Positions 7,757-63,354 of a stretch of DNA of 64,000 bases are shown here, one piece after another. Under the pieces are notes generated by a model. It worked only from the letters and a program-made list of their open reading frames with translations, did not search any database and was not told where the DNA came from. Position 1 is the stretch's first letter, and every line of letters starts with the position of its first letter. Both the position numbers and the translations under genes were made by a program. The DNA is from a virus, in the IMG/VR virus record IMGVR_UViG_3300009068_000028, positions 1-64,000 of that record; one strand, written 5' to 3'.

Positions 7757-7820
7757 TATGTTGCACTATATGTAACAACAATATAACATTGTTGTAAAAA
7801 ACAGTATATAATTAATTAGT

Positions 7821-49707: not shown

Positions 49708-49899
49708 ATGAAGAAATTTTTTGCAGATTTACTCAAAGATATAATTGAGCAATCTTGGACACTTCTTGGTATGGCTATTGCTTGGCTAGTACTAGAAGGG
49801 TCTGCCAGAGAGTTAACAGGGTATCTAATCCTAATAACTATCTCAGTTTGGATAATAACATTCAGACTACGCAATCCAAAAGATAAAGGAAAGGAGTGA
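49708..49899 (+). CDS. Small two-TM membrane protein
   Basis: AAGGAGG RBS; hydrophobic segments. Confidence 0.6.
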   Translation: MKKFFADLLKDIIEQSWTLLGMAIAWLVLEGSARELTGYLILITISVWIITFRLRNPKDKGKE

Positions 49900-58198: not shown

Positions 58199-59033
58199 TT
58201 ATTTGCTCCATAATCTTATATGCAAAATCCCTCTTCTGCTTAATCCACCAAGAGACTGCCCTGTGCATATTTGCTGGATAGTCTTCTAACAATTGTTGGA
58301 CTAACACTCGAAGTTTATTCCAATCACTTATCTGACTTACTGGCATATCCGTAAACAATGTTTCCCAAAAACCGTAGGCTTCTCCAACACTACTTATCTT
58401 GTCAGCAATCGGTAGAGCCAACATTTCTAATCCTTCGTAAAATCTAAAAGAATCAATTGTAGCGTTGCCAGCAGGGGCAGGAGCAAACCTAGCAGAAGCC
58501 AATAGATTGTAGTAGTCTTTTGGTGTCTCACCCTGTGTAAAGCCTTCTGTAAACTTATAGACTGTGTTTGAAAGTTTCTTTAGGGCTTGTGCAAGCTCTT
58601 TCCTACGTGGGTGAGTTATCTGACCAGCAAAGTAAATATCTGTTGTTTTTGTTGGATAATCTGGAATAACATTGTTTTTGTGGTTTGGAGTTCCAAGCGG
58701 CAACTTGTTGTATGACGAATGACGAGGGTAGGGAGATTGAATCCAAATTTCAACATTAGGGTGAGAGATCTTTTCAACACCAAACACACCAAGCTCGTCT
58801 GCTGTAACAAACAACACAAGCCTTCTAATGTTAGATAAACTTTTATTTAAAGTTTCTTCGAGACCAGTCCACTCAAAACCAGGAATAACAACAAATGCTC
58901 TGTCTGTTTTTGGTAGTTTGTTTACTTTAACAACATCAACACGGTTTCTTGTAAAGGCTTCTTGCAAAAATCCAAAGTCCCACTTATCATCTGGAAATCC
59001 TTTTCCTTTTGGAGTAAAAGAATAAGCTATCAA
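58188..59033 (-). CDS. Exostosin (GT47)-like glycosyltransferase
   Basis: YFAGQ..RKEL and YYNLLASARFAPAPAG...SFRFYEGLEMLALPI motifs; TTG start in a TTGA overlap. Confidence 0.65.
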   Translation of the reverse strand: MIAYSFTPKGKGFPDDKWDFGFLQEAFTRNRVDVVKVNKLPKTDRAFVVIPGFEWTGLEETLNKSLSNIRRLVLFVTADELGVFGVEKISHPNVEIWIQSPYPRHSSYNKLPLGTPNHKNNVIPDYPTKTTDIYFAGQITHPRRKELAQALKKLSNTVYKFTEGFTQGETPKDYYNLLASARFAPAPAGNATIDSFRFYEGLEMLALPIADKISSVGEAYGFWETLFTDMPVSQISDWNKLRVLVQQLLEDYPANMHRAVSWWIKQKRDFAYKIMEQINAY

Positions 59034-59986
59034 TTTATTCCAAGTTCCTTTAAGATTGTTGCCCATCTATGCTTGTATGTGTGTTCATTCTTTGCACGTT
59101 CGTGTCCAGCAAACCTAATTGCTTCTCGTTCTTCGTTGTGTTCAATATAATAATCAATTTTTTCTTTTAAATCCCTAATGTTTCCGTGTTCATAGAACAC
59201 AATCTCTTTCTTGTTTTCAAAAAAAGTATCAAGCCCTAGAATGTTTGGGTAGATTGTAAATCCTGCACGACCAGTAGACTCAAACAATCTGTCCGAAGAG
59301 TAGTAAGGATAGTTAAAGTTAATGTTGAGCGTATCTCCAATTGCAATTTTACTACGAGCATAGATACGATTTAAATCGTTACCCCTTACAACACCTGTAT
59401 CTCCATCTCCACCAACGTGAAGAAATCTTTTGCCATAAAGTTCTCTTAAAGCAGTTACAAGTCTTGGGCGGTATGGGTATTCAGGATGATAGTTCTTGCT
59501 ACCAACAAAGATAACATCATAATCAAACGTGCCGTTATAGTCTGGGTGAACATAACACTCAGGACCGAAGACTCCAGCAGGAAGGAAGTGACCTTTAACC
59601 TTAGTATTCTCGTTAAACCAATCAGCCATTAATTTATCAGTGGCAAAGAAGTGACCGATGTTTTTATAGAAAGGATCATTCTCAAGATCGTGCTGACGCT
59701 TAAGACCAAACCATAGGTCTAAGTGATAGGTCATAGTTGGTACATTAGAATCTTTAAGTTCCTGAAGAATATCTATTCTTTCTTGACCAGGCGTATTCCA
59801 TCCGTGAGTATGAACCCAAACAAAAAGGTCTGAGGTAACCGCCTCACGAAGAACCTTCCCAATGGTTGTTCCTCGTCCTTCTTGAAACTTAACTACGGTA
59901 TGACCTAATGCTTCTAAAGATTTTGCGTGATGATTCTCACTGCTAAAATCTACCTGGAAGTTTCCAAGAAATGTAATCTTTGCCAA
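59030..59986 (-). CDS. CgeB/Glyco_trans_1_2-like glycosyltransferase
   Basis: DVIFVGS, IYARSKI, SDRLFE and ERE.IRFAGHERAKNEHTYKHR motifs. Confidence 0.75.
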   Translation of the reverse strand: MAKITFLGNFQVDFSSENHHAKSLEALGHTVVKFQEGRGTTIGKVLREAVTSDLFVWVHTHGWNTPGQERIDILQELKDSNVPTMTYHLDLWFGLKRQHDLENDPFYKNIGHFFATDKLMADWFNENTKVKGHFLPAGVFGPECYVHPDYNGTFDYDVIFVGSKNYHPEYPYRPRLVTALRELYGKRFLHVGGDGDTGVVRGNDLNRIYARSKIAIGDTLNINFNYPYYSSDRLFESTGRAGFTIYPNILGLDTFFENKKEIVFYEHGNIRDLKEKIDYYIEHNEEREAIRFAGHERAKNEHTYKHRWATILKELGIN

Positions 59987-60041
59987 AATAACCTCTTCTG
60001 TTATGTTTCTATTTTATCATATTGTGTTGTATACTATAAGT

Positions 60042-60123
60042 GTCCCTCACACTATCTTAGGATGGATTAGTTACCCAAATGATAAGACCGTGGCTAACTG
60101 CAGCGGATTTCGGTGTGAGGGAC
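60042..60123 (+). ncRNA. Predicted structured small RNA of unknown class
   Basis: 11-bp closing stem GTCCCTCACAC/GTGTGAGGGAC; TATACT -10 at 60030-60035 places +1 at the stem start; downstream T-run; internal helices with complementary loops. Confidence 0.6.
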
Positions 60124-60149
60124 TCTATTTTTTATGGTATAATATTTGT

Positions 60150-61277
60150 ATGCCATATAGCGTTGGAGAAAAAGGGTCTTACGGTTGCTCAGGTTACCCA
60201 GCCGTTAAAGACGACGGAACAGTAATGGGATGCCATAAGACAGCTGAAGAAGCTGCTAATCAAATTTATGCCATCAATGTCAGTGAGGGCAACATCGATC
60301 CAAAGTCTGGACATTCTGGAATGAGCGATGAAGAAGAACGTATGAAGCGTCGTGAAAGAATGTACAAAGCTGATATTAAAGAAGGCGACTACGTAATGGG
60401 AATGACTGTAGAAGGAATGGCTCACGGAAGAGTAGAACACATTATGCTAGAAGGTGGAACTCTTGGGGAGCCTGGAACAGCATACGCACTTGAGTCTATG
60501 CCACCAGAGAACCCAGCAATGTCCGTAAGAGTTTATGAAGAGGGTGAAGACGGAATGTGGGAAGCAACTGCCTATAGCATTGGAATGATGTATCAAGATG
60601 CTACACGTCTTGACGATTTACAAGGACACCACATGGAAGACGAAGAAAATGATTATCAAATGGATATGATGGCTAAGGCTGAAACATATTCTCCAACAGA
60701 AGGAATGAAGTCTGCTGCTCGTCGTGCTCTTAAATGGAAAGCTGAAGGCAAGGCTACAGGTGCAGGAACTCCAGTCGGATGGGGAAGAGCATCAGATATC
60801 GTAGCAGGAAGAGCTATGTCTCTTAGTGTAGTTAAGCGTATGTATTCTTTCTTCTCACGTCACGAAGTAGACAAGAAAGGCAAAGACTTTAATAACACTG
60901 CTAACCCTAGCAATGGTCGCATTATGTGGGATGCTTGGGGTGGAGATGCAGGATTTTCCTGGTCACGTGGCATTGCCGAGCGTATGAAGGATAAAGCTTT
61001 GTTTGCTAATTTTGGTAAAGACTATACAAAGTCTAAGCCAGTAGATCTATTTAAAGCAATTGGTGTTGGCTCTATGGTTAGTTGGAATTCTTCTGGCGGT
61101 AGAGCAACAGGTAAGATTACTAGAATTATTCGTAATGGATCTTACAATGTTCCAGGCACAGATGTTACAATCAATGGTACTCCAGATAATCCTGCTGCAG
61201 TAATCACTCTATACCGTGACGGTAAGCCAACAGACACAATTGTTTCACACAGAATGAACACTCTTAGAGCCTCCTAG
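60150..61277 (+). CDS. Modular head-associated protein with two SH3/Tudor (DUF2945-like) modules and a helical W-rich module
   Basis: Leaderless ATG at 60150. Modules DIKEGDYV...ENPA and IGVGSMVSW...DNPA, plus KRMYSFFSRHE...WDAWGGDAG. Confidence 0.6.
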   Translation: MPYSVGEKGSYGCSGYPAVKDDGTVMGCHKTAEEAANQIYAINVSEGNIDPKSGHSGMSDEEERMKRRERMYKADIKEGDYVMGMTVEGMAHGRVEHIMLEGGTLGEPGTAYALESMPPENPAMSVRVYEEGEDGMWEATAYSIGMMYQDATRLDDLQGHHMEDEENDYQMDMMAKAETYSPTEGMKSAARRALKWKAEGKATGAGTPVGWGRASDIVAGRAMSLSVVKRMYSFFSRHEVDKKGKDFNNTANPSNGRIMWDAWGGDAGFSWSRGIAERMKDKALFANFGKDYTKSKPVDLFKAIGVGSMVSWNSSGGRATGKITRIIRNGSYNVPGTDVTINGTPDNPAAVITLYRDGKPTDTIVSHRMNTLRAS

Positions 61278-62223: not shown

Positions 62224-62297
62224 GGGGCAGTAGCATAACAGGTAAATGCAATACTCTTATAAGGTATCGATAATGGGTTCAAGCCCCATCTGCCCTA
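62224..62297 (+). tRNA. tRNA-Ile(TAT)
   Basis: GGGGCAG/CTGCCCT acceptor, ATACT-CTTATAA-GGTAT arm, GTTCAAGC, discriminator A. Confidence 0.85.
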
Positions 62298-62298
62298 C

Positions 62299-62370
62299 GC
62301 CCTTGTAGCTCAGAGGAAGAGCAGCAGGTTTCTACCCTGCGTGTCGCTGGTTCGATTCCAGTCAGGGGTT
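62299..62370 (+). tRNA. tRNA-Arg(TCT)
   Basis: GCCCTTG/CAGGGGT acceptor, GCAGG-TTTCTAC-CCTGC arm, GTTCGATTC. Confidence 0.88.
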
Positions 62371-63054
62371 CTCGTATTGCGAAGGATCTGGAAACATATC
62401 CTTTAAGATAAAATCAAGTATAAAGTCAAAGTTTGAGTCGTGACTAGATATGTAGTTTAGGTCTTCTTTAATGAGGTCGTGGAACTTACCCTTTAATTCT
62501 GTATTACTATATACTTTCACATCGTAAGTCTTTGTGCCACCTACATTATAAACATTTCCATATGTTGATCTATGCAGTGTTTTATGATTTAATACTTCAA
62601 GAAGCTTTGCCTTGTTCATAGGCATAGGAACATGTAGTTCGTAATCTAAAGTATTTGCAATACCCATTCTATTTAAATAGTTTTGTGTCTTGCTAAACAG
62701 TCTTTGATATCCATAATTGGTTTGTCCTGTGTCTGAATAAGATGCAAGAACTTCTTGGATTGTTCCAGAATAAAAGTATTCAACCTTATCTAATTTTTTT
62801 ACAGTAAAAAAGTCATCATTCATTAAAACAAAATCATCACTTATATCCTCTGTTGCACAGATAACATCTAATTGTTTCCAGACGTTAGGATGTCCTATAC
62901 CAGTTTGTTGTACATAAATATAATCTCCTGTATACCAGTCTGGCTTGCCACCGACTACCCAGATACGACCTTCTGGTAAATTTTTCACGGTAGATCTAAT
63001 TGAGTATCTTAACTCTTCATTGTCTCCAGGACGGCAAACATAAACGTAATCCAT
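62362..63054 (-). CDS. Stealth-like (hexose-1-phosphate transferase) protein
   Basis: MDYVY, EELRYSIRS, FVLMNDDFF and HVPMP match Stealth CR1-CR3-type motifs. Confidence 0.6.
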   Translation of the reverse strand: MDYVYVCRPGDNEELRYSIRSTVKNLPEGRIWVVGGKPDWYTGDYIYVQQTGIGHPNVWKQLDVICATEDISDDFVLMNDDFFTVKKLDKVEYFYSGTIQEVLASYSDTGQTNYGYQRLFSKTQNYLNRMGIANTLDYELHVPMPMNKAKLLEVLNHKTLHRSTYGNVYNVGGTKTYDVKVYSNTELKGKFHDLIKEDLNYISSHDSNFDFILDFILKDMFPDPSQYENP

Positions 63055-63105
63055 TGTTAATCCAATCTTTATTTTATTATATCATTAACTGGTATAATGG
63101 TTGTA

Positions 63106-63354
63106 ATGAGCGTGTCAGAACATCTGGCGGTCCTTAGAGCCTACAAAGAGGACAAGGGTTGCACTGACTGCGGTTATAAATACCCTCATTTTATTCTTGA
63201 GTTTGACCACAAGCCAGGTTATCGTAAGCTTGATAACGTCTATAGAGTACTAAAGAAGTACGGAATAGAGATGGCTTGGAAAGAAATAAGAAAGTGTGAA
63301 GTTGTTTGTTCTAACTGCCACAAGATAAGAACAAACGATAGAGAAGAATCTTAA
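63106..63354 (+). CDS. HNH endonuclease
   Basis: CTDCG...LEFDH...KCEVVCSNCHKIRT. Confidence 0.8.
   Translation: MSVSEHLAVLRAYKEDKGCTDCGYKYPHFILEFDHKPGYRKLDNVYRVLKKYGIEMAWKEIRKCEVVCSNCHKIRTNDREES

Follow-up and report, generated by a model that had tools for sequence, protein, structure and literature searches.

The intergenic segment at 59987-60149 of the window, the 64,000-nucleotide stretch of viral DNA analyzed here, holds what its sequence indicates to be an independent small-RNA gene, that is, a moron-like unit that has its own promoter and its own 3' end, is inherited as a unit, and from which a small RNA would be transcribed. This RNA would span 82 nt (60042-60123, + strand). It folds into a three-way junction made of helices P1, P2, and P3, scores 112.9 and 89.6 bits with two covariance models of the family (R1 and R2), and has at least 120 distinct homologues on viral and metagenome contigs. 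At the family level, P1, P2, and P3 stand far beyond chance, and the structure is under selection. The best explanation, which we hold with moderate confidence, is that of a moron-type small-RNA gene whose RNA would act in trans, with a conserved partner binding the P2 module. To our knowledge, roles have been assigned to only a few small RNAs encoded by phages, and these brought to light new routes of host takeover and anti-defense. The large family, the textbook covariation, and a sharply bounded 20-nt module make the present RNA a well-posed target for partner identification, all the more as tRNA genes, a minimal HNH nuclease, and a conserved head-region gene accompany it.

The gene unit and its family

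The segment is bordered by a minus-strand glycosyltransferase gene (59030-59986) on one side and by a plus-strand ATG at 60150 on the other, and the source phage genome, a 91.7-kb IMG/VR record, carries a single copy of the RNA. A previous sequence-only reading of this DNA had proposed a stand-alone structured RNA at this place, with a TATACT -10 box 6 nt before the first stem base, a closing stem of 11 bp, and a T-run behind it. The -10 box is present at 60030-60035 (+ strand) and is followed by a spacer of 6 nt and then by G60042, the seventh nucleotide past the box and the predicted transcription start. The T-run is present as well, in the form of a U-rich tail 3' of P1 (60124-60133, + strand). 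As for the closing stem, it exists, but its length is 12 bp, including one U-G pair (5' strand 60042-60053, 3' strand 60112-60123, both on the + strand). Together, P1 and the U-rich tail would constitute an intrinsic terminator or a 3'-end determinant. Within the family, T accounts for at least 6 of the 12 nt directly past P1 in 55 of 80 members.

Two observations argue for a stand-alone gene. A T-A-t-A-A-t box ends 6 nt ahead of the start of P1 (G-U/C-C) in the 77 members examined, that is, at a fixed distance. Besides, and most clearly, the L084 and L014 contigs carry a near-identical RNA between flanks unrelated to those of the window, and the identity (alignment A7) is limited to a unit running from the -10 box through a few bases past P1. 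The fixed box, the U-rich tail, and the persistence of the unit between unrelated flanks bore out the earlier proposal on this point.

A possibility was that the element is a plain intrinsic terminator, in which case homologues would have conserved the outer stem only. On the contrary, conservation within the RNA is highest in the inner P2 module. In addition, the upstream gene of the window is divergent, so that P1 is not its terminator, and the stem encloses 58 nt. A plain terminator was thus rejected, and a terminator scan of the window did not call the element. Another possibility was a riboswitch or another cis-acting leader of the next gene. As the sequence-only reading had pointed out, this gene has its own promoter, TGGTATAAT (60135-60143, the promoter region extending over 60135-60149, + strand), located 6 nt before the ATG at 60150. 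Since this promoter falls between the RNA and the ATG, and since the downstream neighbors differ among contexts, the RNA is not the leader of the next gene. The same geometry recurs in the genome, and in the window and most of its relatives, a -10 box lies 6-7 nt ahead of the ATG of the next gene. Judging from this spacing, the mRNA of the gene at 60150 would be leaderless.

Incidentally, we noticed that the gene start at 60135-60152 and about 17 other gene starts of the 91.7-kb genome (examples at 7820, 50303, 61515, 63109, and 66312) lack a Shine-Dalgarno sequence and have a TATAAT-like box 6-7 nt upstream of the start codon, in many cases with a TG in front of the box. The HNH and MPY genes of relatives (see below) are organized likewise. 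With such a box at this distance and no Shine-Dalgarno sequence, many operon-first genes look leaderless, as in Actinobacteria.

Homologues were collected from viral contigs via the downstream protein and exact scans for the conserved core, which yielded at least 80 distinct elements, and from a metagenome scan, wherein 53 of the 100 16-mer loci listed were true members. Members range from 73 to 93 nt and were recovered at 25-113 bits with the covariance models, R1 being built on the subfamily of the window and R2 on 75 members. In 185,579 species genomes, the exact 16-mer was found at 97 places, fewer than expected by chance, always as single occurrences and never in arrays. This, along with the single copy in the phage genome, excluded a CRISPR-repeat mimic or a type III antitoxin RNA. 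Only two of the 97 matches, L265 (48.4 bits with R1) and L259 (37.1 bits with R2), were true copies, and both belong to one MAG. These copies (L265 2525-2609, - strand; L259 3159-3234, + strand) lie on two contigs of an uncultured Methylococcus sp. MAG, the second of which also carries three tRNAs. Both are probably phage contigs binned into the MAG, which makes the Methylococcus label unreliable as a host clue.

Database searches supported the notion that the family is new. Using blastn, the element of the window and a type-B member had no real match in 50,697 cultured phage records, and tblastn with the MPY protein retrieved only distant relatives from cultured phages, below 60% identity, which gave no hint of the host. 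Against Rfam 15, the window passed the gathering score only at its 4 tRNAs, and nothing was found over the element at E ≤10; likewise, the RNA locus of 8 diverse members had no match at E ≤5. The 4 tRNAs that ARAGORN found in the window all lie away from the RNA. This was in agreement with the earlier statement that the RNA resembles neither a tRNA nor a recognized riboswitch or ribozyme. Together with a P1 of 12 bp and the lack of a T-arm, it also excluded a tRNA or a tmRNA. A full-text literature search retrieved no paper that prints the motif. As far as the Rfam, cultured-phage, and literature searches can tell, the family thus appears to be undescribed. It may, however, be among the 10,006 unnamed candidate structured RNAs predicted from IMG/VR by Fremin et al. 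(2023; PMC10690425), an article whose text mentions no HNH, Hsp20, or comparable motif.

A complete relative of 95.9 kb, which has both the MPY and the HNH genes, and four large fragments are devoid of the RNA. Its absence from a complete relative indicates that the RNA gene is accessory and dispensable. Of minor note, one metagenome contig of 1,140 nt opens one base ahead of the predicted 5' end of its RNA (L332 2-84), which could be a coincidence or could mean that the contig derives from a transcript.

Covariation and the invariant 20-mer

The minimum-energy fold of the RNA is a three-way junction of -38 kcal/mol (z = -3.9), and none of 200 shuffled sequences was equally stable. It agrees with the junction drawn by the sequence-only reading, whose two inner pairings are both present, namely TCTTA (60055-60059) with TAAGA (60083-60087) and CCG(T) (60088-60091) with (G)CGG (60103-60106). 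MAFFT followed by RNAalifold did not recover the structure because stem lengths differ among members, and covariance-model alignments A4 and A6 were used instead. In A6, which contains 97 sequences, both-side changes were observed at 12 of the 12 P1 pairs, and 97.3% of the P1 cells were paired, a value reached by none of 500 shuffles. An anchor-based count, which does not depend on any model, revealed that several positions of P1 are occupied by four types of pairs. Throughout the structure, G-U pairs are much more numerous than A-C pairs (about 39 versus 8 in P1), which identifies the + strand, that is, the strand of the promoter, as the RNA strand.

The P2 hairpin (60055-60087, + strand) pairs 60055-60059 with 60083-60087 and 60063-60065 with 60075-60077, and in most relatives it forms an uninterrupted, G-U-rich helix of 8 bp. 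Its closing G-C pair is found in all 80 members, the adjacent pair is G-U in 41 and G-C in 32 of them, and pair 6 is A-U in 27, G-U in 15, and G-C in 11. The 9-nt loop (60066-60074, + strand) reads AUUAGUUAC in 65 members out of 80, ACUAGUUAC in 12, and takes other forms in the last 3. The P3 hairpin (60088-60106, + strand), whose loop is variable, pairs 60088-60091 with 60103-60106 and 60093-60094 with 60100-60101; in A6, both-side changes affected 5 of its 6 pairs, and 77% of its cells were paired. One subtype (L010, L017, L024, L146, and L197) lacks P3 and has an extended P2 instead, and some subtypes have additional bases 5' of P2 that are able to extend it. Junction J3/1, AUUUC in the window (60107-60111, + strand), is GAAUU-like in most relatives, with GAAU/GGAU conserved in the alignments. 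Taking the structure as a whole, the covariation score in A6 was 0.41 versus 0.20 for shuffled alignments, none of 500 shuffles reached 0.41, and sliding the partners brought the score to 0.11 or less. Alignment A4 gave the same picture.

The sequence-only reading had also noted that the two enclosed loops are complementary (60067-60074 with 60090-60097) and had envisioned a kissing loop or pseudoknot, possibly in a self-oligomerizing RNA such as the pRNA of phi29. The 8 bp do exist in the window, but they are not above chance and do not covary. Seven bp are left in the closest relatives of the window, and elsewhere the best pairing amounts to 4-5 bp. Over 80 distinct members, the best pairing between the P2 loop and the downstream segment averaged 4.86 bp versus 4.85 bp after shuffling. 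On A6, the proposed helix was 56.1% paired versus 56.7% after shuffling, showed no covariation, and had its three outer pairs broken in most sequences. It also overlaps and competes with P3, which does covary. Hence, the loop-loop complementarity is confined to close relatives of the window, and the idea of a pRNA-like oligomer is unsupported. The phi29-type pRNA is the essential packaging RNA of small protein-primed podoviruses, and what defines it is a conserved loop-loop pairing between molecules, together with its role on the portal in phi29-like phages. Like pRNA, the RNA studied here is small and phage-encoded and combines a three-way junction with two hairpin loops. Unlike pRNA, it has no conserved loop-loop pairing and no Rfam match, it resides in a phage of about 92 kb or larger that has a terminase, and its gene is dispensable, as seen with the complete 95.9-kb relative.

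The most constrained segment is a 20-mer, CUURGGAUGGAYUAGUUACC (CUUAGGAUGGAUUAGUUACC; 60056-60075, + strand), which comprises the 5' strand of P2 and the 9-nt loop and is presumably a recognition module. It is invariant across the family except for A/G at 60059, U/C at 60067, and rare indels of 1-2 nt at 60063-60067, that is, between its two halves. Its partner strand is free to vary, and its 5' C and U are conserved though unpaired in most members. Moreover, three loci (L127, L136, and L143) present the 20-mer in a different scaffold of 115 nt, which has its own covarying closing stem. There, only a 2-bp stem lies beneath the loop, and the 5' half of the 20-mer has no pairing partner. A sequence that stays fixed while its partner strand varies, that keeps unpaired bases, and that is reused in another scaffold suggests that the module would be read by a sequence-recognizing partner, the remainder of the RNA being packaging.

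Gene neighborhood of the RNA

The ATG at 60150 opens the syntenic MPY gene (60150-61277, + strand), which encodes a 375-aa "MPYSVG..GSYGCSGYP..GCHKT" protein with a C-terminal Hva1_TUDOR domain (Pfam and PHROG matches). In 93 of 144 RNA contexts, a gene with the MPY domain is found on the same strand at a distance of no more than 3 kb, and the RNA is upstream of it in 86 of these 93. A small HNH gene often separates the two. The synteny, which the sequence-only reading had anticipated when it pointed to homologues upstream of such genes, amounts to about 83% of the contexts with enough flank and holds for the 115-nt scaffold too. Looking from the protein side, 58 of 80 MPY loci had no RNA within 3 kb. 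Some RNA sites depart from the usual plan, being downstream of the MPY gene (L014) or beside unrelated genes (L084, as well as Dps and methyltransferase contexts).

A small HNH endonuclease gene is located at 63097-63354 (+ strand; PHROG HNH families, E = 1e-20), and its product is 44% identical to the HNH protein encoded beside the RNA in L074. Such minimal HNH genes (85-91 aa, PHROG HNH) are directly downstream of the RNA in 53 of the 144 contexts and within 3 kb in 82. When loci were anchored on MPY, an HNH gene was found in 12 of 22 loci with the RNA versus 3 of 58 without it. We noticed that the HNH proteins of the window (63097-63354, + strand) and of L074 (1257-1532) consist of the nuclease domain only of PHROG families whose profiles have 211-252 positions. 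The minimal HNH could be a homing enzyme that targets the conserved RNA gene or the 5' end of the MPY gene.

Other neighbors recur as well. An Hsp20 gene (Pfam HSP20) is directly upstream of the RNA in 63 of the 144 contexts; L109 (2329-2757) and 63 other loci exemplify this position of the small heat-shock gene. From our reading of the sequences, the auxiliary region with the Hsp20 gene presumably encodes a Dps/ferritin-like protein too in many of these phages. HSP20 and Dps/ferritin-like genes occur also in relatives lacking the RNA. In the window, tRNA-Ile(UAU) and tRNA-Arg(UCU) genes (62224-62371, + strand) lie 2.1 kb downstream of the RNA, and tRNA clusters are near the RNA in several other contexts. 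Proximity to a tRNA is closest for the 115-nt variant, whose gene order is large terminase, tRNA-Ile(UAU), RNA, a different HNH, and an MPY-domain gene. At these loci (L127 3042-3156, L136 3036-3152, and L143 535-650, all on the - strand), the RNA starts 1-4 nt past the tRNA, between the genes for the large terminase and for an HNH protein of 165 aa. No separate promoter is visible for the RNA there, and it is probably cut from a co-transcript with the tRNA.

The MPY domain itself deserves a few remarks. It is a conserved N-terminal domain of 45 aa (MPYxVGxKGSYGCSGYPxxK..G.VMGCHKT..A..Q) that heads proteins with otherwise different bodies (window 60150-60290; position 3001 of L003-L074; L127 1975-2496, - strand), and a further match was with the N-terminal end of a "head maturation protease" PHROG. 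AlphaFold modeled it as three strands and a helix, well defined over residues 1-45, with pLDDT block means of about 87-91 over residues 1-40 and a mean of 77.7 over all 65 residues. A Foldseek search of this model against the PDB gave nothing below E = 1.6, and NCBIfam gave nothing useful.

Possible functions and partners

Under the trans-acting reading that we favor, P1 would clamp the ends of the RNA, set its 3' end, and protect it, P3 would be a variable strut, and the working part would be the invariant 20 nt. A conserved macromolecule would read the P2 module by sequence and shape. The partner of first choice would be a component of the translation apparatus, and that of second choice the product of the syntenic MPY or HNH gene. 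Our best guess as to the full order is the translation apparatus, then the MPY/HNH products, then a pairing target such as 23S rRNA, followed by a role in cis, an aptamer or ribozyme, and lastly a site acting at the DNA level. The tRNA clusters found near the RNA in several contexts and the 115-nt variant directly following tRNA-Ile(UAU) were counted in favor of a link to translation. Counted against action in trans was the strong MPY synteny, which could mean a role in cis or one linked to the operon.

The same synteny is the main argument for the RNA working with the MPY product or the small HNH, as a cofactor, a regulator, or head cargo together with an internal protein. It was found in 93 of 144 contexts, with MPY downstream in 86, and included the loci of the 115-nt scaffold, which had been found through the RNA motif alone. 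The presence of HNH within 3 kb in 82 of 144 contexts, its bias among MPY-anchored loci (12 of 22 versus 3 of 58), and the Tudor/SH3-like barrels of the MPY protein go in the same direction. Yet the 58 of 80 MPY loci and the complete genome with MPY and HNH that do without the RNA show that neither protein needs it, the MPY N-terminal domain has no recognizable RNA-binding fold, and an insertion hot spot or hitchhiking with a homing endonuclease could explain the synteny. We regard such an RNA-protein pair as unlikely. The conserved orientation and position upstream of MPY could also be those of a cis element of the downstream operon, whether an attenuator, a processed leader, or an insulator, acting on read-through into HNH/MPY. 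Consistent with this, about 30% of members have a weak U-tract or none, and in the 115-nt scaffold, gaps of 35 and 13 nt separate the RNA, HNH, and MPY genes, with no visible promoters. It is nevertheless a rather improbable reading: a -10 box dedicated to the next gene precedes its ATG by 6-7 nt in the window and in most relatives, the RNA is also found downstream of MPY (L014) and beside unrelated genes (L084, Dps, and methyltransferase contexts), and the invariance of 20 nt across different downstream genes would be left unexplained.

Selection could also bear on the DNA, the 20 bp being a binding or cleavage site for a protein, for instance an HNH homing site, and the RNA being incidental. 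The strong association with HNH genes of two families and the occurrence of the unit in different genomic contexts would fit, but we hold this to be the least probable of all readings. Compensatory changes, the abundance of G-U pairs on one strand, and the fixed promoter distance point to selection on a transcript. Besides, the variable P3 and the P1 3' strand lie between the core and HNH, which is the reverse of a co-conversion gradient, and the core is identical with and without HNH, and hence not a site that distinguishes such copies. Slightly less remote, though still very unlikely, is a ligand-binding or catalytic RNA, that is, a stand-alone aptamer or sponge or a small ribozyme. A compact three-way junction of 73-93 nt has the size of a purine-type aptamer, its junction nucleotides are conserved, and the P1 sequence is partly so. 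However, no riboswitch or ribozyme family matched 9 members at E values up to 5-10, P3 and the junctions differ by subtype and P3 can be absent, which would be unusual for a ligand pocket, and conservation is centered on one hairpin and not on the junction. Several resemblances were dropped along the way: a boxA-like CGCUCUUA, seen in one subtype only; a fourU-type thermometer, with no regulated ORF downstream; a 5S-like P1, as P1 varies; and, after consideration, a CsrA GGA sponge and an anticodon-loop look-alike (CUUAGGA/CUUGGGA).

Base-pairing was another way in which the 20-mer might act, as a seed for a conserved host RNA. No antisense target of the 20-mer was found in the window or the 91.7-kb genome, where no site was better than -19 kcal/mol, and no exact complement was present in any genome scanned. 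The best candidate was 23S rRNA: two blocks of 7-8 nt are complementary to the H69 loop and its 3' flank, UAGUUAC facing the loop GUAACUA and CUUAGGA(U) facing the adjacent UCCUAAG, for -20.2 kcal/mol with E. coli 23S. This beats the best phage site (-19.0 kcal/mol over 183 kb, both strands). The variable positions are compatible with the scheme, A/G lying opposite U, U/C falling in the unpaired linker, and the indels being confined to that linker, and it would explain why the unpaired 5' C and U are conserved. Still, 8 of 60 shuffled 20-mers did as well on rRNA (RNAduplex), complete pairing would require the opening of both hairpins, and blocking H69 would damage ribosomes that the phage needs. 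We consider a pairing regulator unlikely.

The P2 module also recalls a piece of 16S rRNA. Like the 790 loop of 16S helix 24, it is a 9-nt hairpin loop closed by GG/CC. Counting the closing pairs, and provided that the flanking C is there, 12 of 13 nt are the same as in the E. coli 790 loop (AUUAGUUAC versus AUUAGAUAC), the sequence of which was verified. Eight of 9 loop nucleotides and the GG/CC closure are common. Run with filters off on E. coli 16S GGAUUAGAUACCC, the family covariance model aligned the apical hairpin in register, albeit at E = 2.8. Unlike the 790 loop, every member has one universal loop base changed (A to U), and nothing is similar outside the 13 nt. An ungapped match of the core to rRNA was equaled by 43 of 200 shuffles (p about 0.2), and nhmmer against the rRNA operon found no match at E ≤100. 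This is a resemblance, neither homology nor demonstrated mimicry, and both the 790-loop likeness and the H69 complementarity are within chance and stay at the level of hypotheses. A long shot that would unite the two is that the RNA aims at the subunit interface of the ribosome. P2 would copy the universally conserved 790 loop, and the A-to-U change would make it a perfect complement of the H69 loop. Such an RNA would titrate IF3 or another ligand of the 790 loop, or it would dock on free 50S subunits, biasing initiation toward the many leaderless mRNAs of the phage. With a ribosomal partner, it would be the first known case of a phage RNA acting on the ribosome itself, in hosts dominated by leaderless translation. 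If not, it would still provide Rfam with a clean new family of RNAs and mark an uncultivated phage group.

By analogy, the closest known things are orphan stable RNAs of phage tRNA regions, such as T4 "species 1 and 2" (RNA C and D) and the ROOL (about 580 nt) and GOLLD (about 800 nt) RNAs, found beside tRNAs in phages and prophages. Like these, the RNA is a phage-encoded, accessory, structured non-coding RNA near tRNA genes, and one subtype is so near a tRNA (1-4 nt) that co-transcription is likely. Unlike ROOL and GOLLD, it is far smaller (73-93 nt), matches neither their sequences nor their models, has its own -10 promoter, and is built on a single invariant hairpin module. GOLLD and ROOL also figure in bioRxiv 10.1101/2024.12.08.627333. 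Bacterial Y RNAs (YrlA) form a long stem with their ends, some are phage-encoded, and the gene of their partner protein (Ro/Rsr) is nearby. The present RNA is likewise small and has its 5' and 3' ends in a long stem. In contrast to YrlA, the locus has no YrlA/Y_RNA model match, no tRNA-like T-arm, and no Ro gene among its neighbors.

Last, we noticed in the window an exact 15-nt copy of the 16S 790 loop (GGATTAGATACCCTG; 49817-49831, minus strand). It lies antisense within a 63-aa plus-strand ORF (49708-49899) and is probably a chance occurrence within coding sequence. The P2 loop of the RNA differs from this 790-loop sequence by one base.
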